Assembly (NCBI RefSeq): GCF_900182575.1
Contig: NZ_FXSZ01000002.1
Span: 263,501 to 295,500 of the forward strand
From: Solitalea koreensis
GTDB lineage: Bacteria; Bacteroidota; Bacteroidia; Sphingobacteriales; Sphingobacteriaceae
DNA: 32,000 bases
Reading direction: 5' to 3'
The translations under genes were made by a program, and so were the position numbers. The notes beneath the pieces are model-generated. The model was not told the DNA's origin and searched no databases. It saw only the letters and a program-made list of their open reading frames with translations. Of this stretch, positions 2,810-15,710 are shown in pieces; the stretch's first letter is position 1, and every line of letters begins with the position of its first letter.

Positions 2810-5017
2810 CTATTCGATAGTAAACCAGGTATAACTTTCCGGTTCAATACTACAGGTTAATTCAACTTCGTAGTTCCGGTTAAGTTTATAGGATTTATAG
2901 TCACCGTCCTTCTCTTTTAATTTGGCAGATGTTGCTAATCCGGTATAATACAACGGAACTTTAATGGTTCTTGTAATTTTTTCCTTTAATGGATTGTATA
3001 GCATCACCAATCCTTTTGTTTTTAGATTAGGATTAACGTGCAATAGGCCATCCCAATCTCTTCCATCAGCTCTGCGTAAATGAATAATGTCGGAATTGAG
3101 AATATCACGATACTTTTTATACCAGCTGATAACATTTATTACCGTTTGTTTAGTGGTTTCGGTATCGTATAGTCTTGGACCACGATAACACGCTTGTACT
3201 CCGGCACCATAATACTGCATCATTAGTTGATCATAATCTTTCAAATGTTCAGAAAGTGGTTCCAAGACAGATTCGGGTCCACCACCATGATAACGGGTAA
3301 GCGGTACAAAACCCCAACCCATGGATGCTGTTTTTTCCCAGGTGCCATCAAAAATATTCTGGCGGTTTAAAATTTTCTGATTCTCTCTGGGTAATGAAAA
3401 GTTTACTTCCCGATAACCGATGGCTATTTTATGTGTACCATCCAAAAAGTACCAATCAGGAGCGTTCACATATACTCCTTTTTCATTAAGCCAGTGGTAT
3501 AACTCTTTTTGAATCTCCATTTGTCGCCATTGCGAATCATCCAAACCTATATGCCCCGGATGGGTGGTTGATGCACATACATCACCAGGGTATGGCCCAT
3601 CATTTTCCCAAATATCAAAACCAGTTTGGGTATAGAATTTTTTTATCTTATCACGGTAGCCCAAGCCCCATTTACTACCATAACAAGGAGCATGACCGAA
3701 AAATGCGCCACCAGGTTTACCTGTTTTTGGATCGACAACATCATCTTCATCACTAATTCTACGGCTACTGAACAAGGAGTAACCTCCTATCATTATTCCT
3801 TTACTATGGGCATAATCAGCAAGAACCTTCCATTTTTGTAAATTGGTTGCTGTTGTGTCTTCCATATTTACATGACTACCAAAACTAAGTATCAATGCTT
3901 CATAACCGGTAGCAGCACATTGATCAACAGCTGTACGAACCTGTTCATCATTTTTACTAACCAAGTGCATGAAAATTGGGTTAGCAGTTGTCCATGGTGC
4001 AACTGTAGCGTACATTTTACGAATAGCTAATCCTCGTCTTTCTCTGTCGTAACTATCGATTAGCAACTCATGTGTACGCACTGATTTGAAATTTTCACCA
4101 GGCTGTAATTCAATGTCAGGATCTTTTACCGGATACACCTCCAATAAACAAGGGGTGTGATAATCGTAGTTTACCTGAGAAGTATAAGTTGAATCAACTT
4201 TCCAATGGGTAGTTTGGTCGCTGATATCGTACCGCATGGCATTATTGAACGCATAATTGGTTTCTATATAAATACCATGAGGTTTTTTCATCACTTCAGG
4301 TTTTCCCACCACAGCACTTTCTTCTTCTACGGTTCCTAAAATTTCATTGACAACACGATCTATCTTAAATACTTTATTGCCTTTATTTTCGATGCTGAGG
4401 GATTTTACAATTAAAGGTAGTCCATCATACAATTCATAATTCACTCTCACTTGCAAACCTGATAGGCGTGCAACACTAGGCTCGTATAGAAATGAAATCA
4501 TTTTACCAGTGGCCTGACTATTATTGGTAGCCCAAAACTTATTTTTCCATTGTAAGTAAGGCGTAAGTGGTTTTATTTCAAATGAAACAAACTGAAAATC
4601 GTTTTCTCCCTTTGTAAACTTATTTACCCATTCCGGTCTGAGATACGCATTTTCTTTTTGTCCACTCAATCCTCCAACATTATAATCTATTCCATTAATA
4701 GTTAAACGGGCTTCAGCTTTTACCGACCTAAGCAATTGTTCATCATTGATAAGGTTTGAATAATCAATACAAGCAACATTGGGCGTAATAGTAAAAACTC
4801 TTCTTACTAAACCATTGCTAAGAATGATCTCTTTATTGTTTTCACTTTTATAAATGGTTGCAATATATGGTTGAGCGTTTAACAGCCAATCAACTTTTTT
4901 TATATTTTGAATTTTAGCATTCAAAACCGGCAACTGTTGGATGCTTGTTTGAGCCTGAACATGAATTGCGGCACCTGACAGAAGTAAAAACAGTATTTTA
5001 TTGAAACCCATAATCAT
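2810..5017 (-). CDS. Secreted glycoside-hydrolase-like protein, family uncertain (possibly clan GH-D / alpha-galactosidase-like TIM barrel)
   Basis: 735-aa ORF. The N-terminal MIMGFNKILFLLLSGAAIHVQAQ looks like a signal peptide. GFDIWENDGPYPG resembles the G-x-D-x-x-K/E-x-D nucleophile region of GH27/36 enzymes. It sits inside the sugar operon. The family call is weak. Confidence 0.55.
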   Translation of the reverse strand: MIMGFNKILFLLLSGAAIHVQAQTSIQQLPVLNAKIQNIKKVDWLLNAQPYIATIYKSENNKEIILSNGLVRRVFTITPNVACIDYSNLINDEQLLRSVKAEARLTINGIDYNVGGLSGQKENAYLRPEWVNKFTKGENDFQFVSFEIKPLTPYLQWKNKFWATNNSQATGKMISFLYEPSVARLSGLQVRVNYELYDGLPLIVKSLSIENKGNKVFKIDRVVNEILGTVEEESAVVGKPEVMKKPHGIYIETNYAFNNAMRYDISDQTTHWKVDSTYTSQVNYDYHTPCLLEVYPVKDPDIELQPGENFKSVRTHELLIDSYDRERRGLAIRKMYATVAPWTTANPIFMHLVSKNDEQVRTAVDQCAATGYEALILSFGSHVNMEDTTATNLQKWKVLADYAHSKGIMIGGYSLFSSRRISDEDDVVDPKTGKPGGAFFGHAPCYGSKWGLGYRDKIKKFYTQTGFDIWENDGPYPGDVCASTTHPGHIGLDDSQWRQMEIQKELYHWLNEKGVYVNAPDWYFLDGTHKIAIGYREVNFSLPRENQKILNRQNIFDGTWEKTASMGWGFVPLTRYHGGGPESVLEPLSEHLKDYDQLMMQYYGAGVQACYRGPRLYDTETTKQTVINVISWYKKYRDILNSDIIHLRRADGRDWDGLLHVNPNLKTKGLVMLYNPLKEKITRTIKVPLYYTGLATSAKLKEKDGDYKSYKLNRNYEVELTCSIEPESYTWFTIE

Positions 5018-5126
5018 TTTAATTTTTCAGTGAAATACTTCTATAAAATTAGACTAGCATGTGACACTCCTTCTCCCCGCCGATACTTACAACGACTCCC
5101 TGTTAAACAAAAAACGCTAGGATACA

Positions 5127-6779
5127 TTATAATGAAACGCCTCGTTTCCATGGAATAAAATCATCCTGACCTAATTCTACAGACTTAGGAATAATTTCTC
5201 CGCTAGCCGCTTTAATACAATATTCCAAAATCTCCTCTCCCATTTGTTCGAGTGTTTTTTCGCCGGTAATTACACCACCGCAATCAATATCAATAATATC
5301 ACTCATTCTGGTAGCCAAGGCCGTATTAGATGAGAGCTTAATAGTTGGGCAAACAACATTGCCGGTTGGTGTTCCTAAACCGGTGGTAAACAAAATCAGA
5401 GTAGCACCACTGGCTGCTTTTCCGGTAGTAGCCTCCACATCATTACCTGGTGTACAAACCAAATGCAGACCCGGCTTAACAACTGGTTCCGTATAATCTA
5501 AAACATCAGTAATTGGGGCTGTACCTCCTTTTTTAGCCGCTCCAACAGATTTTATCGCATCGGTAATTAATCCATCCTTAATATTACCCGGTGAAGGATT
5601 CATATAAAAACCACTACCTACAGCTTTTGCCTGAGCGTCATAAGCCTTCATGAGATGAGTGAATTTATCAGCAGCTTGGTGGGTAACACAGCGGTCAACT
5701 AAGTTTTGTTCAGCGCCAAACAGTTCAGGAAACTCCGCCAATAAAACTTGTCCACCTAGTGCTACTAATAAATCAGAAGTATATCCAACTGCCGGATTTG
5801 CCGAAATACCTGAGAACCCATCAGAACCTCCACATTTTACGCCAATGCAAAGTTTACTTAGTGGTTGAGGAGTTCTCTCGACTTTGTTTACTTCAATTAA
5901 GCCCTCAAATGTTTTTTGAATAGCTTCTGCAATCATTAATTCTTCTGATACAGCCGATTGTTGTTCGAAAATATACATCGGCTTATTAAAGTTAGGATTG
6001 CGTTTTTTGATGTCTTGCAGTAATAAATCAACTTGCAAGTGCTGACAGCCTAAACTCAGAATAGTGATACCGGCAACATTGGCGTGGTCGGCATATGAAG
6101 CTAATAATTTGCTAAGCATTTCACTATCTTGCCTTGTGCCACCACAACCGCCTTCATGATTTAAAAATTTAATACCATCAATGTTTGGAAACAAACGATC
6201 ATTAATAATAATATCTTCTTCCTGTAACAAAAATTGTGGGGTCAGCGTCGCCGTATCGGTTTGTTGTTTATGAGCTGAAATTAATTTACTAACTGCTTTC
6301 CGGTATTTATGAGATGGCGCATACCCCAATTGTTGAAGCAGCGCATCTTTGATATAATCCAGATTTCTATTTTCGCAAAAAACCGTTGGAATAAATAACC
6401 AATAATTAGCTGTTCCTACTCTTCCATCGTTACGTAAATAACCGTTAAAAGTTCTTTCTTCCCATTTGTTCACATCCGGTGCTGTCCAATGATAATCATT
6501 TTGCTTTTTATAATTTTCATTAGAAGCATGCTTGATATTATGAGTATGAATTAACTCTCCTTTTTGAATAGATTGAGTGGCTTTGCCAACCAAAACACCA
6601 TACATAATAATCTCATCACCCACGACAAAATGCTTCATGGCAAACTTGTGCTTGGCTGCAATATCATTTTGCAAAGTATAACATTCATTCTTAAATTCGA
6701 TAATATCGTTTTTGGACAAATCGGTTAAAGCAACTAGTACGTTATCTGTAGAATGAATTTGTAATATTTTTTGAAACAT
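5127..6779 (-). CDS. UxaA-family sugar-acid dehydratase (altronate dehydratase-like, N-terminal SAF domain)
   Basis: 550-aa ORF. The N-terminal VLVALTDL...G..I beta-clip resembles a SAF domain. The C-terminal region, with a CGGT..D-type cysteine region (NHEGGCGGTRQD) and GVKCGGSDGFSG, is typical of UxaA/GarD-family dehydratases. Confidence 0.8.
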   Translation of the reverse strand: MFQKILQIHSTDNVLVALTDLSKNDIIEFKNECYTLQNDIAAKHKFAMKHFVVGDEIIMYGVLVGKATQSIQKGELIHTHNIKHASNENYKKQNDYHWTAPDVNKWEERTFNGYLRNDGRVGTANYWLFIPTVFCENRNLDYIKDALLQQLGYAPSHKYRKAVSKLISAHKQQTDTATLTPQFLLQEEDIIINDRLFPNIDGIKFLNHEGGCGGTRQDSEMLSKLLASYADHANVAGITILSLGCQHLQVDLLLQDIKKRNPNFNKPMYIFEQQSAVSEELMIAEAIQKTFEGLIEVNKVERTPQPLSKLCIGVKCGGSDGFSGISANPAVGYTSDLLVALGGQVLLAEFPELFGAEQNLVDRCVTHQAADKFTHLMKAYDAQAKAVGSGFYMNPSPGNIKDGLITDAIKSVGAAKKGGTAPITDVLDYTEPVVKPGLHLVCTPGNDVEATTGKAASGATLILFTTGLGTPTGNVVCPTIKLSSNTALATRMSDIIDIDCGGVITGEKTLEQMGEEILEYCIKAASGEIIPKSVELGQDDFIPWKRGVSL

Positions 6780-6808
6780 AAAAGTGATTGTTATTGCACC
6801 TGAACTAA

Positions 6809-8092
6809 TTAATTGCTTTCTGTTTTAATTTTATGACCCTTCCAACCGAACCAGGCCACAACTATAAAGCAAACCAATGGTACTGTATAGCCATACTGAA
6901 TGTTATCAATTGATTCGCCAACCATTGCAAAAACGCGCGGCAATATAGCACCTCCAACAATTGACATTACGATTAAGCTACTTCCGAATTCTGTATCGCC
7001 ACCCAAATCTTTAATGCCTAAAGAAAAAATAGTAGGGAACATAATAGACATAAAGAAGCATATACCTATTACTGTATACACGGTAATCATTCCATGCGCA
7101 AATATGGCAACTAAGCATAATGCTATATTTATTACGGCATAAGAAGCAAGTAAATACTGAGGTTTGATGAAAACATTTAAACCTGTTCCTACAAATCGGC
7201 CTATTAAAAAGGCAATACCGCATATTCCAAGATAGTCAGCTGCCTGTACATCTGTTATACCTGCTGATTTTGTTGCATATAAAATAAACAAACTAAAAAC
7301 ACAAACCTGAGCGCCTACATAGAAAAATTGAGCCGCTACCCCCCACGATAAATGCTTGTGTTTAAAGGCATGTAAAATGTTTTTACCAGCAACATGTTCG
7401 CCGGTTGTTTGAATTTTTGGAAGCTTAACTAATGAGAATAAGATTGCTATCAAAACCAGAATACCACCTAAAACAAGATAAGGTGTTTTTACTGAAGAGG
7501 CCTCTGCTGCTAGTGCAAGTTTTTTGGCACCTTCGGTCATTGCATTTAATTCATTATCTGTATGCCCTTTTGTTAGTATAAGTCTTGCTCCGATAACAGG
7601 AGCTAAAGCAGCAGCCAGCCCATTAAACGATTGTGCAAAATTCAGTCTTAACACCGATGTTTTAGCATCACCAAGAGAAGATATATAGGGATTTGCTGCG
7701 GTTTCTAAAATAGTTAAGCCACAAGCTATAATAAACAATGCTACCAAGAAGAAGCCGTAAAGCTGAGTGTTTGCGGCAGGAATAAACAGGAACGAACCCG
7801 TAGCAAAAATCAATAATCCTATAATGATACTCGATTTATAACCATATTTCTTCATGATAATGCCCGCAGGTATAGCCATTATAAAATAAGCTATAAATAC
7901 AGCAGAATCAACCAATGTGGCCTGAACGGCGGTAAGTGTAAATGAGCGTTTTAAATGCGGTATTAGTATTGGATCCAAGTTATGTGCAAACCCCCACAGG
8001 AAGAATAAGCTTGTTACCAAAATAAGTGGTACTAAATAGTTTTTGGTTCTGCTAGGACTTTTAACAGCTACGGTTTGAGTTGATAATTCCAT
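6809..8092 (-). CDS. fucP: L-fucose:H+ symporter permease (MFS, FucP family)
   Basis: 427-aa, 12-TM-like hydrophobic protein. The N-terminal LILVTSLFFLWGFAHNLDPILIPHLKRSF matches the FucP-family signature region. It lies next to a mutarotase and a sugar-acid dehydratase. Confidence 0.8.
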   Translation of the reverse strand: MELSTQTVAVKSPSRTKNYLVPLILVTSLFFLWGFAHNLDPILIPHLKRSFTLTAVQATLVDSAVFIAYFIMAIPAGIIMKKYGYKSSIIIGLLIFATGSFLFIPAANTQLYGFFLVALFIIACGLTILETAANPYISSLGDAKTSVLRLNFAQSFNGLAAALAPVIGARLILTKGHTDNELNAMTEGAKKLALAAEASSVKTPYLVLGGILVLIAILFSLVKLPKIQTTGEHVAGKNILHAFKHKHLSWGVAAQFFYVGAQVCVFSLFILYATKSAGITDVQAADYLGICGIAFLIGRFVGTGLNVFIKPQYLLASYAVINIALCLVAIFAHGMITVYTVIGICFFMSIMFPTIFSLGIKDLGGDTEFGSSLIVMSIVGGAILPRVFAMVGESIDNIQYGYTVPLVCFIVVAWFGWKGHKIKTESN

Positions 8093-8686: not shown

Positions 8687-11362
8687 TTATTTATCAACTG
8701 TAACAATATCCCTAACCCGAATATCTTTTGAAGATGCCCCAATCATAATTCTAAATTCACCGGGTTCAACTACCCACTGCATCTGCTCATTTAGCATTTT
8801 TAACAGGTCGGGGGTAATCGTAAATGTAACTTCTTTTGTTTCTCCTGGTTTTAAATGAATACGTTGAAAACCTTTCAACTCTTTAAGAGGACGAGCCACT
8901 GATGACACCAAGTCGCGAATGTACAGCTGTACCACTTCGTCGCCTTCTCGTGTTCCGATATTTTTTATCGTGCAATAAACTACAGTTGATTCATTTTTAG
9001 AAAAATGCTGTTTATCAAAACGCAGATTACTGTATGCAAATTTAGTATAGCTTAATCCGAAGCCAAACGGAAATAAGGGTTGACCGGTAAGGTTGACATA
9101 ATCATCGGTGCGTCCGGTGGGTTTATGATTGTACACTAAAGGTAACTGCCCCTCGGCTATAGGAAAAGTAATTGGCAAGCGGCCGGCAGGATTGTAATCA
9201 CCAAATAACACATCGGCTAAGGCATTTCCTCCTTCTTCTCCCGGATACCATGCATCTACAACTGAAGAAACATTATTGATCCATTTGGTCATGGTAATGG
9301 CACTACCACCAATTAGAACCACCACCACAGGTTTGCCGGTCGCGGCAATTCTATTAATCATTTCTTCCTGATAACCGGGTAAATTTAAATAAGCCCTGTC
9401 GAGTGATTCTCCTTCTTCAATACCGGTTACAACAACAGCTACATCCGATTTTTGAGCCGTTGCCACTGCATCATCAATTTTCTGTTGCCAATCATTAGGC
9501 ACACCGATATTCCAAATAAGCTTAAACCACGCTGAACCCGAAGACTCAAAAAATTCTACACGGATATCATATTCCTTGTCTTTTTCAAAATAATAGTCGG
9601 TTAATAAGGTACTGTATGTTTGGCTTTTCCAATTATCAATTATTAGTTTTCCATTCAAATAAAGCCGATAACCATCGTTACCATCCAGTCCAATCTTAAA
9701 TTTACCTGTTGCCGGTGCTTTTAATTTACCTGTCCATTTAACCGAATAGAAATCATAATTAATGTCTGGGTGAGGAGAATACAGGGTCCAGCGAAAATTC
9801 ATTTTTTTATCCACCCTGGTCACTACCGGTTTACCATTTAAGGCAATATTGTTGAAATATTCACCCAATAAACCATTCTCTGTTTTTCCGTTTGCGCTTA
9901 CAGATAAATTTGCTGATGGCACCGTAACCCATTCATCCGATTGGCGGCCGCAACCAGGGGAATACAGTACATTGCTTGTTTTATTTAACTTATTTTTAAT
10001 ACCATCGAGAATACTAATTTTTCCATTGCCAGGTCCGCTGTAACCGCCCAACCTTGCTTCAACGGCATCGGTGCCGATAAGCGCCAATGAATGTATTGAT
10101 TTCTGAAGTGGTAAAACGTTATTATCATTCTTTAATAACACTATGGATTTTAATGCTGCTTCTTTTGCTAATGTTTTGTGAGCCGGATTCCCATTCCATT
10201 TATTCACTTCATTTTCATTTACATACGGATGTTCGAAAAGCCCCAATTGGAATTTAATTGTCAGAACCCGTTTTACGGCTTCATCCATAGTTTTTTGATC
10301 AATTCTGCCATCCAAAAATGGTGGGATAAATAGCTTGTAATGCTCATAATCCGTCTGAAATATGACATCCAATCCATTGTTGATGGCTTTAGCCGAAGCA
10401 TCGGGATAATCGTTTGCTGTAAAATGCAAAACATTGGCACCTCCAACAGCCGAAGCGTCTGAAATTACGAATCCCTTAAAGTTCAATTCTTGTTTCAGTT
10501 TTTTGTTTAACAACCAATCATTTGCAGTACATGGACTTCCATTTAAAGAATTGTAAGAAGTCATTACACTGCGGGATCCTCCTCTTTCGAAACAAGCCTT
10601 AAAAGGTGGAAGATAAATTTCTTCCAGCAAGCGTTCATCGAAATCAATGGGATAACTATCACGGCCGCCATCTCCACTATTAGCTAAAAAATGCTTAGGT
10701 GTAGTAACCACATCCATTTTTTCAAATGGAGAAACGAAAGCTACTCCCATTTCCGATGATAAATAAGGATCCTCCCCATAGGTTTCCTCCACCCTTCCCC
10801 AACGAACATCACTGGCAATATTGACAACAGGGGACAAAATTTGACGAATCCCCCTGCTTTTTGTTTCACGGGCAATGGCTTCGGCTACGCGTCTCATCAA
10901 CGACGTGTCCCACATGGCAGAAAGACCTATGGATTGAGGAAATGCAGTAGCTCCATCCCTGACCAAACCATGCAATGTTTCATCAAAGGCAATTATGGGG
11001 ATGCCTAAGCGTGTTTCTTCTACAAAATAGTTTTGAATAGCGTTAATCTTCCTGGCTGTTTCCAATGCCGTTGCAGAAGAGCTGTAACTAAGCAACTGTC
11101 CGGCGGCATCCGTATTACCCTTGGTACTTACCTGAAATCCAAATATGCCCTTCTGGTATTTTTCCTTTCCTTCTTCCAAATCGCCCGGAATCATGAATAA
11201 TTGCCAAAACTTTTCCTCAGTATTCATTCGTGATAATAAATCCTTTACTCTTTCATCTATGGAAAGCTTAGGGTTTTTATAAGGCAACTTGGCTTGTGAA
11301 AAAGCAGAAAAAGATAAAAATGTGAATAGTATTAAAATGAAGAACCTTTTCTTTTCTATCAT
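8687..11362 (-). CDS. Glycoside hydrolase family 3 beta-glucosidase with inserted PA14 domain
   Basis: 891-aa ORF with a signal-peptide-like N-terminus (FILILFTFLSFSAFSQA). GH3 motifs are present (SDVRWGRVEETYGEDPYL and GFVISDASAV with the nucleophile Asp). A PA14-like insert is present (GLLGEYFNN...YSVKWTGKL...DGYRLYLNGKLIID). Confidence 0.9.
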   Translation of the reverse strand: MIEKKRFFILILFTFLSFSAFSQAKLPYKNPKLSIDERVKDLLSRMNTEEKFWQLFMIPGDLEEGKEKYQKGIFGFQVSTKGNTDAAGQLLSYSSSATALETARKINAIQNYFVEETRLGIPIIAFDETLHGLVRDGATAFPQSIGLSAMWDTSLMRRVAEAIARETKSRGIRQILSPVVNIASDVRWGRVEETYGEDPYLSSEMGVAFVSPFEKMDVVTTPKHFLANSGDGGRDSYPIDFDERLLEEIYLPPFKACFERGGSRSVMTSYNSLNGSPCTANDWLLNKKLKQELNFKGFVISDASAVGGANVLHFTANDYPDASAKAINNGLDVIFQTDYEHYKLFIPPFLDGRIDQKTMDEAVKRVLTIKFQLGLFEHPYVNENEVNKWNGNPAHKTLAKEAALKSIVLLKNDNNVLPLQKSIHSLALIGTDAVEARLGGYSGPGNGKISILDGIKNKLNKTSNVLYSPGCGRQSDEWVTVPSANLSVSANGKTENGLLGEYFNNIALNGKPVVTRVDKKMNFRWTLYSPHPDINYDFYSVKWTGKLKAPATGKFKIGLDGNDGYRLYLNGKLIIDNWKSQTYSTLLTDYYFEKDKEYDIRVEFFESSGSAWFKLIWNIGVPNDWQQKIDDAVATAQKSDVAVVVTGIEEGESLDRAYLNLPGYQEEMINRIAATGKPVVVVLIGGSAITMTKWINNVSSVVDAWYPGEEGGNALADVLFGDYNPAGRLPITFPIAEGQLPLVYNHKPTGRTDDYVNLTGQPLFPFGFGLSYTKFAYSNLRFDKQHFSKNESTVVYCTIKNIGTREGDEVVQLYIRDLVSSVARPLKELKGFQRIHLKPGETKEVTFTITPDLLKMLNEQMQWVVEPGEFRIMIGASSKDIRVRDIVTVDK

Positions 11363-12411: not shown

Positions 12412-12446
12412 TTAAGTGAATGCAACCACCATAATCATTAAAATAA

Positions 12447-12626
12447 ATGAAAGAGCTTACCATTATCTTTTTATTATTCCTTAGCATTGGTTGTAATCAA
12501 CTTAATGGAAATTTCACTTGAAAGATTGCCTATTACAAACAACTACATGCTCAACCCTGGATTAGCGAAGCATCAGATCTGGACGCCAATGGAATCAGTC
12601 TTTCATACCAACTAACAGTAAACTAA
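12447..12626 (+). pseudogene. Possible small lipoprotein gene interrupted by an in-frame TGA (remnant?)
   Basis: ATG at 12447 gives MKELTIIFLLFLSIGC NQLNGNFT, a signal peptide with a lipobox-like SIGC. A TGA at 12519-12521 follows, and the same frame then stays open for 34 more codons to the TAA at 12624-12626. Support is weak because the ORF is short. Confidence 0.25.
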
Positions 12627-12953
12627 TGTTACACTGTTAAAAAACTTTCAGTCAACAGTCTCGTATAACTTTGAGTAGTTGGTATAATAAACACATAGGT
12701 AAACTTATTTAATTTATAAATATATTGTTGATAGTGATAATGGCTACATAAACTTTCTTGTCAGGTCCGAAGATGATGGTACGAAGTAAGGATATAAACC
12801 TCAATTTACTAATGATTATATGGGAAAAGGATTGGATATGGTTCATAACGCTTGTTGTGAAATCGTATTCGCCATTATTAAAAAAGAATAGTTTGTTATG
12901 GATAGCAACCATTCAATTGTTGAACATCAAATTGAATATTTTAAACTATAATC

Positions 12954-12977
12954 AAAAAAGGGAGCAAAAGGCTCCCT
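12954..12977 (-). terminator. Rho-independent terminator of the orphan two-ORF module
   Basis: The minus strand reads GGGAGC-CTTTT-GCTCCC followed by TTTTTT, starting 7 nt after the stop codon at 12984-12986. Confidence 0.8.
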
Positions 12978-12983
12978 TTAATA

Positions 12984-13796
12984 TTAACTTAAATCAAGAA
13001 TTAAGAAACACTCTCGACACTTAACTTCTATATTCGCTTTTACGTATGTATCCACCGTAAGACTTAATAATAAACTTCCGATTGCATCTCCTTTAGTTTT
13101 TTCCCTGAATCTTTCTGAATTTTTATACTTATTTTCATATAATTCTTCCGCTTTTCCCGCATCAATCTCTGAAATTGTTAAAGCAAATTCCAAATTCTGA
13201 TCGGCTGATTCCAATAGAACTTTCAGACCTGATGAAATATTACAAATAATAACTTTCTCATCTATGATTTGATTTGCGAAAATCATAATCGGAATCTCTT
13301 TAAAAGTTCCAACTACATGAAAAGGATAAGGTGAAAAATTTTCATTTCGAAATGCAATAAAATCTTTATTATTTACTAATTCACCTTGAATACCAAAATA
13401 AAATTGATTGGACATAATTATCAATTCTGGTAAGTTATTCTTGAAATTCTTGAGATATAGTTCAAGGTTTTCTAAAATACTTTTTCTTGTTTTCTTAACA
13501 AAAACACCGTTTTTGATGATATTATCAAAAACGTCTTTTTCAAATAATCTACTAACTTGACTACCTATATTAGAAGGTATGTAGATTTCTTGAGCATCAT
13601 CAATAAAGAATTTTCTAGACTCAAAAAGAGTACTCCCCAGCCTCCCTAGACCGTTAACGTCATCAATTGCACTATAGGAAATATTATCTTTCGAGAAGTA
13701 TCTAATTGCTTTTAAAAGTTTATCACTCCTTTTCCATAGCTCCAAATTGGTATTTATGAACCTATTGATTTTTTGAGCAGATAAGGCTTTTTCCAA
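12984..13796 (-). CDS. Hypothetical protein (270 aa from a TTG start). The reading frame is actually open for 61 further codons upstream, to 13979.
   Basis: ORF-track entry. The annotated start is TTG (caa on plus, 13794-13796). It is Ile/Asn/Lys/Phe-rich and AT-rich, and I recognise no catalytic motif. The upstream in-frame extension (ITRCNIYISKSLVSTINENNENKIKWAEFLKIDNIDEAILRVNEIINKLDKRKEAIIEKDA) has no ATG/GTG/TTG and no stop codon. Confidence 0.6.
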   Translation of the reverse strand: MEKALSAQKINRFINTNLELWKRSDKLLKAIRYFSKDNISYSAIDDVNGLGRLGSTLFESRKFFIDDAQEIYIPSNIGSQVSRLFEKDVFDNIIKNGVFVKKTRKSILENLELYLKNFKNNLPELIIMSNQFYFGIQGELVNNKDFIAFRNENFSPYPFHVVGTFKEIPIMIFANQIIDEKVIICNISSGLKVLLESADQNLEFALTISEIDAGKAEELYENKYKNSERFREKTKGDAIGSLLLSLTVDTYVKANIEVKCRECFLILDLS

Positions 13797-13942
13797 GGCA
13801 TCTTTTTCAATTATGGCTTCTTTACGTTTATCTAATTTATTTATTATCTCGTTTACTCTTAATATTGCTTCATCAATATTATCAATTTTGAGAAATTCTG
13901 CCCATTTAATTTTATTCTCATTATTCTCATTTATTGTAGATA

Positions 13943-15508
13943 CTAAACTCTTTGATATATATATATTACATCTTGTGATTTAGATTCTGTTAAAAGTTTA
14001 TCTAATGCCTTATCTCCATATTTAGAAGACACAATCTGATTTTTCAAAATGGAAATTACAAAACCCAAAATGATGAAGTGATCAGTATAAAGCATACTAT
14101 ACGCTTGACCATTTAATCTCTTCTCAGAATTCCAAATCCAATCATTCCAATTAAAGTAACTATCTTTTTTCTCTAAATAATAAAGTGTTTTTTCGAAAAG
14201 GTAGTTTAGGCGAGTTTCACTTAAACTATTATCAAATTCTAGTAATGTAATAATATTATCAGGAACCTTTTCAAACTCAATATTCTGATAAATTTTAAAG
14301 CATAACCAATAGTAATTATAAGAAGCAATGGCGTTAAAATCGAAATAAATTGACTGCCATAACTTATATTCCGATTCTTCCGATTCGCTTAATTCATCGA
14401 ATATTATTTTACTCTCAAATGAATCATATCTTCTAAAAACTTCCGCTTTAGTCATAGAAATTTCATTCAGAATATTTTCTAAACTGTTGAAATCACCTTT
14501 TTCGATTAAAATTTTTATTGTTTCACTAAAATCAATCAATAATGGCTGGATTAACTCTTGGTGTTGAGTAGAAATCTTAACATCATCTTTATAAATAATA
14601 TTAAAATCTATAATTTCTCTAATTCTCAAAAAAAAGTCATCAACAACTTCATACCCCAATTTTTGATCATCTAGTTTTAAATATATTCTTCTCGGAAGAC
14701 CGGATAAAATATATAAAATAAGCGGTCTATTATGATTTAATGCATATACAATGCATTTGTAGTAAAATGTCAATAATACGGAAAGAATATCTGATCTATT
14801 ATTTTTATAGGTATCCACAAAAAACAAGGGGTGCTTATCAAATAATCTTAAGGAGAAAGATGGTTCATTAGGCTCTTCTAATATTCTTAAATAAGCATTT
14901 AAATTTTTATCAAGTAATCCTTGGTCATTTTGAAATAATGAATTACTTGTTTTTAGTAGAAACTCTTCTGATAATCTAGTTTTTATTCTCTCATTATGTT
15001 TATTACCAGTGGCAACAGACACTACATATGATACATATAAATCATTTAAATAATCAGCATCTAAGAACTTAAATACTCTTTGAAAAATTATAATTAAAAA
15101 AACTAGAAATAATACAAATGCATAAACTCCAGCATTAATTAACTTAATAAAAAATATGTCAGAAATAAATGAATTATCATTTCCAACTAAAATGAAAATA
15201 GATAAAGGGATAACGTTTAGGATTACGAAATAAAATAAGGAGAAAAAATATGATTCCTTAAATACTAAAAGAAGAATGCTTTGATCATTCTTCAATTGTA
15301 CAATTGAAAATATTATTGCAGAAATAGCAAGAGATATTGTCAAAATTGTAATGAAATTAGTGTTAAGATCCTTAGCAAGATCATATGCTTCAGATCGAGT
15401 CAGGTGAAAAACTTCTATCCATTCAATGGATATACAGGATATTAAGTAAAAGCAAACAATAAAAAGAAGAATTGAAAAAATAGATTTTTCAGATTTAAGA
15501 AATTCCAT
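13943..15508 (-). CDS. Hypothetical membrane protein: about four N-terminal TM helices plus a ~370-aa predicted helical soluble region
   Basis: 521-aa ORF with an ATG start. Hydrophobic segments lie at about residues 9-29, 52-72, 86-108 and 121-143 (SIFSILLFIVCFYLISCISI, FITILTISLAISAIIFSIVQL, YFFSLFYFVILNVIPLSIFILVG, IKLINAGVYAFVLFLVFLIIIF). The DNA is very AT-rich and I recognise no family signature. Confidence 0.7.
   Translation of the reverse strand: MEFLKSEKSIFSILLFIVCFYLISCISIEWIEVFHLTRSEAYDLAKDLNTNFITILTISLAISAIIFSIVQLKNDQSILLLVFKESYFFSLFYFVILNVIPLSIFILVGNDNSFISDIFFIKLINAGVYAFVLFLVFLIIIFQRVFKFLDADYLNDLYVSYVVSVATGNKHNERIKTRLSEEFLLKTSNSLFQNDQGLLDKNLNAYLRILEEPNEPSFSLRLFDKHPLFFVDTYKNNRSDILSVLLTFYYKCIVYALNHNRPLILYILSGLPRRIYLKLDDQKLGYEVVDDFFLRIREIIDFNIIYKDDVKISTQHQELIQPLLIDFSETIKILIEKGDFNSLENILNEISMTKAEVFRRYDSFESKIIFDELSESEESEYKLWQSIYFDFNAIASYNYYWLCFKIYQNIEFEKVPDNIITLLEFDNSLSETRLNYLFEKTLYYLEKKDSYFNWNDWIWNSEKRLNGQAYSMLYTDHFIILGFVISILKNQIVSSKYGDKALDKLLTESKSQDVIYIYQRV
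13955..13966. repeat. (AT)6 dinucleotide tract at the frame junction of the two orphan ORFs
   Basis: gATATATATATATtaca on plus, inside the last codons of the 521-aa ORF (…VIYIYQRV*). Removing one AT unit puts the downstream open frame in phase. Confidence 0.9.
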
Positions 15509-15582
15509 AGAAAATATAGATATTCAAGCAATATAGGAAATAATAGAAAAAGAATGTCCCCTATTCCGTCCCCTGAAAATAC

Positions 15583-15617
15583 AAAACCCCTGCAAATACT
15601 TGATTTACAGGGGTTTT
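15583..15617 (-). terminator. Rho-independent terminator downstream of tRNA-Leu (potentially bidirectional hairpin)
   Basis: aaaacccctg(15583-15592) pairs with caggggtttt(15608-15617), and aaat/attt pair further inside the loop. On the minus strand the hairpin is followed by a T-rich run (TTTTGTATTTTC). Confidence 0.7.
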
Positions 15618-15630
15618 AATGATTTTATTG

Positions 15631-15710
15631 TACCCGGAGCCGGAGTCGAACCGGCACGGTTTCCCATCGGTGTTTGAGACCGACGCGTCTACCAATTCCG
15701 CCATCCGGGC
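15631..15710 (-). tRNA. tRNA-Leu (anticodon CAA), class II with long variable arm
   Basis: Minus strand reads GCCCGGA TG GCG GAATTGGTAGA CGC G TCGGT CTCAAAC ACCGA TGGGAAACCGT GCCGG TTCGACT CCGGC TCCGGGT A. The fold was done by hand: a 7-bp acceptor stem (G1·U72 wobble), a 3-bp D stem with GG, the anticodon loop CT-CAA-AC, the T-loop TTCGACT and an 11-nt variable arm. No CCA is encoded. Confidence 0.9.

Follow-up and report, generated by a model that had tools for sequence, protein, structure and literature searches.

Introduction

The HK97 fold is known from the capsids of tailed phages and herpesviruses and from encapsulins, and it is the most abundant viral fold. In this study we analyzed a 32-kb window of the Solitalea koreensis genome (the whole stretch of 32,000 nucleotides from contig NZ_FXSZ01000002.1, to which positions refer unless another locus is named), which contains a low-GC block at the 3' end of a tRNA-Leu(CAA) gene. 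The block carries two co-directional open reading frames (ORFs), ORF A and ORF B, on the minus strand. We propose that these ORFs are the halves of one frameshifted gene within the remnant of a genomic island, and that the gene belongs to a rare family of membrane proteins with a C-terminal domain that is predicted to be HK97-like.

The family resembles the HK97-fold capsid proteins of phages and the encapsulins in its C-terminal part of about 265 residues, for which a long spine helix followed by mixed beta-sheets and two late helices is predicted. In contrast to those proteins, the domain is the tail of an 840-amino-acid (aa) membrane protein with four transmembrane (TM) helices and 400 aa of helical repeats, it shows no sequence similarity to them, and the neighboring genes at 13 loci included no head-morphogenesis or cargo-enzyme families by Pfam. 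The sole HK97-fold protein with several TM helices that we found in the literature searched is the Family 3 encapsulin of Mesorhizobium, which carries 4-5 TM helices in an MFS-like extension (Andreas and Giessen 2021, PMC8346489). In the Family 3 encapsulins the TM helices are C-terminal, the proteins are members of the phage-capsid Pfam family PF05065 and they are encoded in natural-product gene clusters (PMC8346489), whereas in the island family the TM module comes at the N-terminus and is separated from the capsid-like domain by a large helical region, sequence similarity is nil and the context is that of mobile islands. A membrane-anchored HK97-fold protein in defence was not found in the literature searched, the coverage of which was incomplete.

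We know of no membrane-anchored abortive-infection or superinfection-exclusion protein that contains a capsid-fold domain. The likeness to such proteins (e.g., SieA of phage P22, PMC10883804) lies in the solitary gene on an integrated element, the N-terminal anchor, the large part predicted to be cytoplasmic, the absence of an enzymatic signature and the defence-type company, but the family has no homology to any of them. The S. koreensis block shares with islands that target tRNA or tmRNA (transfer-messenger RNA) genes through a tyrosine integrase its position at a tRNA 3' end, its low GC content and its accessory cargo, and a metagenome locus described below (L095) represents the complete form; the S. 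koreensis copy differs in having no integrase, no attachment (att) repeat and a frameshifted cargo gene, and is thus a remnant rather than a mobile unit. Mouse Fv1 is a restriction factor derived from a retroviral gag gene. In bacteria, Avs8 is a sensor of HK97-fold capsid proteins (PMC12236752). Both are conceptual parallels only, in that a capsid fold is used or recognized to block a virus, and neither is homologous to the family.

The two reading frames of the block

A first-pass annotation, made from the sequence alone, had described ORF A and ORF B as two genes that encode a membrane protein and a soluble partner. The ORF B frame has no ATG start and extends back to 13979, overlapping the end of ORF A, and the overlap holds an (AT)6 dinucleotide tract (Table 1). 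With one AT unit less, the frames join (...SQDVIYI followed directly by SKSLVST...) to give 840 continuous codons. We used the fused 840-aa sequence as the query of an exhaustive phmmer search against 1.84 billion cluster representatives, and 21 intact homologs of 818-912 aa aligned with it from end to end (alignment A1, 22 sequences). The junction falls in a variable linker of this alignment, and the S. koreensis sequence aligns throughout. The intact homolog P0003 (856 aa), for example, matched residues 10-816 of the fused query with its residues 13-836 (E=1e-54). When intact homologs were compared to the window by tblastn, the alignments split into colinear segments, the first in frame -2 and the second in frame -1, with the boundary between 13937 and 13955; with P0003, residues 35-536 were placed at 15415-13955 in frame -2 and residues 541-836 at 13937-13059 in frame -1. 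The fused product had been listed in the first-pass annotation as a construct to be tested, and AlphaFold2, supplied with the family alignment, folded it with a mean predicted local distance difference test score (pLDDT) of 84.6 and a predicted template-modelling score (pTM) of 0.67, with pLDDT values of 86-93 at residues 501-530. The end-to-end homologs, the colinear tblastn pieces and the predicted fold through the junction therefore indicate that the two co-directional ORFs are a single frameshifted gene, and we consider one frameshifted gene inside an island remnant to be a very secure reading. The ORF B part, described as soluble in the first-pass annotation, is essentially a domain with a predicted HK97 fold, a feature that inspection by eye could not have revealed; its status as a separate gene was not upheld. 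In the NCBI database the products of both ORFs are identical to S. koreensis "hypothetical proteins", two annotated entries that would thus be the halves of one broken gene.

The S. koreensis copy is most likely inactive, and it is probably dead because the window contains neither an integrase nor an att repeat. As an alternative, we considered that the split reflects phase variation, with the gene reversibly turned ON and OFF, or an artefact of sequencing, and that the gene is functional in at least part of the S. koreensis population. The change of frame lies exactly inside a dinucleotide repeat where one unit fewer repairs the frame, neither half contains other stop codons and most family motifs, such as WNDWIWNSEKRLNGQAY, are retained, all of which would suit a gene that is intact in some cells. 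However, six units are short for efficient slippage, and several family motifs are degraded in this copy (e.g., IYGIxWG to IYIPSNIG and FPIRLKE to FFLRIRE). The loss of the integrase and the att site from the island is also in line with general decay. Furthermore, the split proteins of the NCBI entry occur identically in a second public assembly (Logan), which speaks against an error specific to one assembler. A switch or an artefact is thus a quite improbable explanation for the split, and we retain decay of a single gene as the preferred one.

Table 1. Features of the low-GC block and its edges in the S. koreensis window. AF2, AlphaFold2; H, helix.
Feature	Position	Strand	Basis and remarks
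ORF A, 521 aa	13943..15508	-	ORF list; N-terminal 517 residues of the ancestral ~840-aa gene, then 4 codons out of frame before the stop
ORF B frame, 331 open codons (called as 270 aa, 12984-13796, TTG start)	12984..13979	-	C-terminal third of the ~840-aa gene
(AT)6 dinucleotide tract, frame switch from ORF A to ORF B (-1)	13955..13966	.	Sequence, ORF B-frame translation, tblastn
Four-helix TM module, residues ~6-151	15056..15493	-	Hydropathy segments 6-36, 48-74, 78-112, 114-151; AF2 H9-26, H38-73, H88-108, H117-147
Predicted HK97-fold (capsid-like) domain, fused residues ~575-840	12987..13784	-	AF2 and Foldseek against PDB and BFVD
tRNA-Leu(CAA)	15630..15710	-	ARAGORN; Rfam 15631-15710, 56.3 bits; low-GC block starts at its 3' end
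Terminator-like hairpin, after the tRNA and upstream of the island gene	15582..15618	-	Terminator scan: 16-pair stem, then T-run
Intrinsic terminator directly after the stop codon of the gene	12957..12979	-	Terminator scan: 9-pair stem, 5 GC pairs, then T-run
Low-GC spacer between araC and the gene (572 nt, 30.9% GC)	12412..12983	.	Only stop-riddled ORF fragments (six-frame translation)

The low-GC block and its genomic slot

The GC content of the block 3' of tRNA-Leu(CAA) was about 27%, versus 36-37%. It ranged from 24.6 to 31.2% in 500-nt windows between 12501 and 15500, with a mean of 35.9% over the 32-kb window, and the 2.9-kb stretch of minimum GC in the whole window begins at 12601 (27.1% GC, against 35.7% on average for stretches of this length, with a standard deviation of 2.5). 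ORF A and ORF B, with GC contents of 25.7% and 28.3% and GC contents at third codon positions (GC3) of 0.20 and 0.22, respectively, were the lowest among the 22 large ORFs of the window, the others having GC3 values of 0.26-0.39. The minima of GC and GC3 thus fall where the first-pass annotation had seen a block richer in AT than its flanks, and ARAGORN and Rfam agreed with the position that it had assigned at the 3' end of tRNA-Leu(CAA). It had also described a terminator hairpin after the tRNA and an intrinsic terminator after ORF B, and our terminator scan recovered both of them; six such sites were found in the region compared to 1.1 expected. Apart from the tRNA, the Rfam scan of the region from 12.0 to 16.4 kb yielded nothing.

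The block from 12.4 to 15.6 kb thus combines a position at the 3' end of a tRNA gene with a deviant composition, and we interpret it, by analogy with tRNA-targeting islands, as the remnant of a genomic island that would have integrated there. An integrase was not detected in the 32-kb window by tblastn, and no copy of the tRNA 3' end was found in the araC-gene spacer, where the far boundary of an island would be expected, or elsewhere in the window. Since both are missing, we infer integration in S. koreensis by analogy. As these elements are absent and the spacer contains nothing except stop-riddled fragments, the window therefore holds a remnant rather than the self-contained unit with its own promoter and terminator that had been proposed, the more so as the reading frame is disrupted. 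The distal edge of the remnant is placed somewhere within the spacer (Table 1). Within it, an apparent decayed gene for a small lipoprotein was noted at 12447-12521 (plus strand), beginning with a signal peptide and lipobox (MKELTIIFLLFLSIGC) that run into an early stop, and more fragments were seen in other frames, among them ...YKYIVDSDNGYINFLVRSEDDGTK and ...PQFTNDYMGKGLDMVHNACCEIVFAIIKKE, each of which runs into a stop codon.

We compared the slot among 80 loci from related genomes. The gene order dxr-rseP-hscB-tRNA-Leu(CAA) is kept in Solitalea longa and other Sphingobacteriales, with Desertivirga, several Pedobacter genomes and metagenome-assembled genomes among the carriers. In S. longa (L001, 12104-16000) the synteny with S. 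koreensis stops exactly at tRNA-Leu(CAA). In place of the island, araC and the beta-glucosidase locus, S. longa has unrelated genes of normal GC content there, one for a 534-aa thioredoxin-like lipoprotein and one for an ABC-F ATPase, so that the position of the sugar locus beyond the island is likewise not conserved. Pedobacter ginsengisoli (L025, 13329-14793) has a tyrosine integrase (13540-14793) directly after its tRNA-Leu(CAA) (13329-13402), in a stretch of 36-39% GC inside a region of about 45% GC, and this is another element at the same tRNA with a differing cargo. None of the 80 loci had a homolog of ORF A or ORF B. Taken together, the different contents in S. longa and P. ginsengisoli and the absence of the gene from all 80 loci show that the slot is polymorphic, as would be expected for an island site and as the first-pass annotation had anticipated.

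Predicted architecture of the protein

From the AlphaFold2 models, a member of the family is predicted to begin with a bundle of four TM helices, to continue with about 400 residues of all-helical repeats and to end in an HK97-like domain of about 265 residues. The first two parts fit the earlier description of ORF A as four TM helices followed by an all-helical region, in that hydropathy placed the TM segments at residues 6-151 and the remainder of ORF A was all-helical in the model. Of the six residues that do not vary in the alignment, the TM module contains two (Gln71 in TM2, and Tyr129), A61 and A64 are nearly invariant, and the helices are rich in Ala and Gly. Most of the weaker phmmer matches cover the TM module alone, many of them only residues ~3-170. 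The placement of Lys and Arg residues around the TM helices suggests an N-in/C-in topology with the large soluble part in the cytoplasm. Residues ~150-575 were wholly helical in the model, and their only Foldseek matches were designed helical repeats, importins and armadillo/HEAT-type proteins. Residues ~575-840, which correspond nearly exactly to ORF B, form a predicted alpha/beta domain.

The full-length model gave a best Foldseek E-value of 2e-3, with designed helical repeats mixed with HK97 capsids among the matches; those that did not fall on the repeats were the HK97 prohead and head, the capsid of phage NF5 and an encapsulin, with E-values of about 3e-3 to 1.5e-2. We then re-folded the C-terminal domain (residues 545-840) alone with the family alignment, and the resulting model was very confident (pLDDT 90.8, pTM 0.86). 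Foldseek of this model against PDB produced 156 matches with E<=1e-3, and the top 50 were all HK97-fold capsid proteins or encapsulins. These top PDB matches include HK97, D3, N4, lambda, SaPI1 and the Pyrococcus furiosus particle, as well as the encapsulins of Thermotoga, Synechococcus, Streptomyces and Bacillus, with a best E-value of 7.6e-7, TM-scores of 0.30-0.57 and 236-340 aligned columns. Against BFVD there were 151 matches with E<=1e-3 (best E-value 3.9e-8), and the named ones among the top 50 were all capsid, head or structural proteins. On the strength of these models the C-terminal domain is probably HK97-like in its fold.

The competing explanation is that the HK97 likeness is an artefact of modelling or a convergent alpha/beta topology, and that the protein has no relation to capsids, being an uncharacterised membrane protein in which the helical region acts as a sensor. 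It draws on the lack of any sequence similarity to capsid families, on the moderate TM-scores (0.32-0.57), on root-mean-square deviations that are mostly 4-8 A, and on the shallow alignment of 22 sequences. Lineages of the HK97 fold usually have no detectable sequence similarity to one another, so that its absence here is typical of such families. Moreover, two independent structure libraries agreed with more than 150 matches each, the matches span phage, archaeal-virus and encapsulin lineages over about 230-300 aligned columns, and the model itself is very confident. We therefore consider a spurious likeness unlikely, in an estimate that overlaps with those for the other rival explanations given below, and keep the HK97-like fold as the working assignment. 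The fold is found in the predicted model only; with sequence-level support absent, the assignment rests on predicted structure.

The sole local alignment given by hhalign, which was not significant, placed columns 145-204 of family alignment A3 opposite residues 268-321 of HK97 gp5. It pairs the family pattern 'vif..s.y...nsG.y...PF...GiY..I.iVPl' with the A-domain segment 'GIVLNPRDWHNIALLKDNEGRYIFGG...MWGLPVVPT' ('IVLNP...GRY...GLPVVP'), and is recorded as a hint only. This local alignment might reflect real remote homology.

Genomic contexts of the homologs

We examined the contexts of 13 further independent loci, or 14 with that of S. koreensis. A search with the alignment of a closer subset of the family retrieved only six metagenome loci. 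In a Bacteroidota contig from a bog metagenome (L095, 1371-11109), hscB and tRNA-Leu(CAA) are followed by a stretch of 27-37% GC between flanks of 40-46%. The stretch encodes DUF8370, a PLD-like nuclease (PLDc_2), an 854-aa homolog (4536-7100), small ORFs, an HTH_17 protein and a tyrosine integrase (9684-10910), and the last 15 nt of the tRNA (1441-1455) are repeated exactly at 11095-11109, just past the integrase. This locus is an intact integrative island of about 9.65 kb in the same chromosomal slot as the S. koreensis block. A second contig (L089) is arranged in the same way as L095.

At three loci (L086, 9500-13900; L087; L091) the homolog and a Kinase-PolyVal gene form a patch of 31-40% GC in a genome of about 50% GC, directly adjoining tmRNA and rseP-dxr. 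The vicinity of rseP-dxr is therefore an island site in two lineages by way of two small-RNA genes. In this genome of about 50% GC, rseP-dxr was closest to Saprospiraceae among the loci compared, and the tmRNA itself adjoins rseP-dxr.

Other loci had mobility genes, candidate defence genes or both. L083 carries tRNA-Ser(GCT), an integrase and the homolog in this order, L096 an integrase and an HTH_17 gene, and L100 and L101 are mobilisable elements with a relaxase plus a primase or a serine recombinase. In L093 (12628-15295) the homolog is immediately followed downstream by the two genes of PDC-M62, a candidate system of PADLOC (A, E=2.6e-69, an AAA_21/AAA_15 ATPase; B, E=3.3e-49), and this pair is flanked by a split tyrosine integrase on one side and a large serine recombinase on the other. 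L084 has the KAP NTPase of PDC-S49 with two TIR proteins, and L094 a KAP NTPase with a serine recombinase. Genes for PIN_12, a DACNV "sensor" and HIT were found in L082, and PLD and PIN toxin-type neighbors in L098 (Paraflavitalea devenefica). In raw counts over a sample of only 14 loci, PADLOC candidates adjoin the homolog in L093, L084 and L094, and suggestive Pfam domains occur in L082, L095, L098 and L101. An integrase, recombinase or relaxase is present within 10 kb of the gene in half of the loci (7/14), and in 9/14 the GC content of the gene is lower than that of its surroundings by 3 points or more. The view of the block as compositionally foreign, tRNA-associated, uncharacterised accessory cargo was thus upheld by the composition of the block, by the use of its tRNA-Leu(CAA) site by integrase-bearing elements of other Bacteroidota (L095, L025) and by the occurrence of homologs on integrative or mobilisable elements, sometimes beside candidate defence genes.

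No conserved partner gene emerged from an all-against-all BLASTP comparison of 61 neighbor proteins from nine loci, and the partner gene proposed in the first-pass annotation had no counterpart across the 13 other loci. The lack of a neighbor common to independent loci suggests that the gene acts alone or with host factors. Portal, terminase, protease, scaffold and cargo-enzyme families had no Pfam match among the neighbors examined at the 13 loci. The homologs are, in short, the solitary cargo of mobile or defence-type regions.

These contexts bear on the possibility that the gene serves the island rather than the cell, either as an entry- or superinfection-exclusion factor or through satellite-style hijacking of, or interference with, capsids for the spread of the island itself. 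The frequency of mobility genes within 10 kb fits such a function, and so does the pairing in L095 and L096 of a tyrosine integrase with an HTH_17 (AlpA/excisionase-like) gene, an arrangement that is typical for small integrative elements. Phage satellites use capsid-related proteins for their own spread, and a capsid-like fold would suit capsid biology. On the other hand, the islands have no other gene in common, with no conserved replication, packaging or partner gene in the BLASTP comparison, and a four-helix membrane anchor is unexpected in a protein incorporated into capsids or placed around them. In addition, tblastn found no homolog in 50,697 phage records. We regard a selfish function as unlikely.

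It appears very unlikely that the protein has a cellular role outside of conflict, whether it forms a scaffold or compartment at the membrane from tethered, encapsulin-like shell pieces or serves in stress or transport and simply rides on islands. Such a role would have precedents in the HK97-fold proteins that were recruited for cellular nanocompartments and in the Family 3 encapsulins of Mesorhizobium, the shells of which are fused to 4-5 TM helices (PMC8346489), and some loci (L099) are free of any defence or mobility marker. Nevertheless, the loci have no conserved cargo enzyme and no operon partner, and the encapsulin and phage-capsid Pfam families were not matched. The very sparse and patchy distribution, the low-GC, tRNA/tmRNA and integrase contexts and the pseudogenisation in S. 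koreensis also speak against a needed cellular function.

Proposed function

We propose that the family represents a single-protein conflict factor of mobile elements that would act in anti-phage defence or exclusion. The helical repeats may form a binding surface. The capsid-like domain could bind the HK97-fold capsid proteins of an incoming phage as a bait or a membrane-tethered poison subunit; or else it could be a capsomer-type (5- or 6-fold) oligomerisation module that is triggered by way of the helical-repeat surface. In either case the conserved four-helix modules would cluster and the membrane would be damaged or gated, leading to abortive infection or exclusion. A function in conflict with phages or mobile elements by such a mechanism is tentative and falls somewhat short of an even chance, while a role in defence or abortive infection, as the first-pass annotation had suggested, is plausible from genomic context only. 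It is doubtful that the family constitutes a new type of immune or exclusion factor, made up of one protein with an exapted capsid fold at its core. In that event the membrane-tethered HK97-like domain would co-assemble with incoming capsid proteins or, on a cue from the phage, assemble into capsomer-like rings, and either assembly would open or disrupt the membrane.

As a whole, the explanation that joins an island remnant, one frameshifted gene and an HK97-like conflict factor is the one we favor, with moderate confidence. Several observations weigh against it. Instead of decay, the frameshift may stem from a shared error at the read level or from an ON/OFF switch, and the window has neither the integrase nor the tRNA-end repeat of an intact island. 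Across the 22 members there was no capsid or encapsulin sequence signal in Pfam (including Phage_capsid PF05065 and Linocin_M18 PF04454), PHROGs or PDB profiles, and hhalign against HK97 gp5 returned a probability of 0.09%. The TM-scores are moderate, the root-mean-square deviation was above the 4-8 A range in some matches, and the alignment under the models comprises only 22 sequences. PADLOC-DB v2 gave no match for either half, and for the 22 members only three differing single-member matches with E>=0.001. Clear defence neighbors are present only in about 3-5 of the 14 loci, and the contexts of L099 and partly of L098 are uninformative. Any function, be it defence, toxicity or capsid binding, is putative.

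The local object is an ordinary decayed island, while the family, by its predicted architecture, is unusual in combining a TM module, helical repeats and a capsid fold in a rare protein of mobile elements. The known kinds that it extends are the exapted HK97-fold proteins and the solitary membrane-anchored cargo of islands. If the predictions are correct, a family that fuses the HK97 fold to a membrane module and stands alone on integrative or mobilisable elements would put the fold to a new use. Should it also prove to be an immune or exclusion factor of the kind described above, it would be the bacterial equivalent of restriction factors that derive from capsids, such as Fv1, and a third career of the fold besides virions and encapsulins. 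The family offers a concrete single-gene candidate for how capsid assembly may be targeted or imitated by cells or mobile elements. The hscB-tRNA-Leu(CAA) slot and, in a second lineage, the tmRNA beside rseP-dxr are sites of variable cargo in Bacteroidota that could be mined for accessory genes.

Distribution and variants of the family

The family is rare, with 63 cluster representatives among the 1.84 billion searched, and was revealed only by the exhaustive phmmer search with the fused sequence; word-indexed searches with ORF A, ORF B or the family profile returned almost nothing beyond the query itself. By tblastn, a collection of 72,556 plasmid records held no homolog either. The family is unnamed and so far occurs only in Bacteroidota-type contexts. 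The only other cultured carrier that could be named is P. devenefica (L098), with the intact homolog WP_167292470.1 (P0015).

The first-pass annotation had found no recognisable signature in either ORF by eye, and none was detected in our searches of Pfam, NCBIfam, PHROGs, PADLOC and PDB sequences. Pfam, PHROGs and PADLOC likewise gave nothing consistent over the 22 full-length members, and the PDB sequence and profile searches gave nothing. Its statement that the module matches no named defence system also held, the family being absent from PADLOC v2. Kiwa-like, SLATT-like and other known TM effectors were dropped as candidates after no match to their hidden Markov models was obtained.

Longer variants were also noted. 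P0027, P0029, P0037 and their relatives have about 1013-1041 aa and P0064 has 1122 aa, with an insertion of some 170-280 residues after the TM module and before the helical region. We had considered the 290-395-aa matches to the TM module as new domain combinations, but rejected this because they are most likely N-terminal fragments of the ~1020-aa variants. In a more distant member, 'WGWDWWEMEG' takes the place of the WxxWIWxxEERLxG motif.

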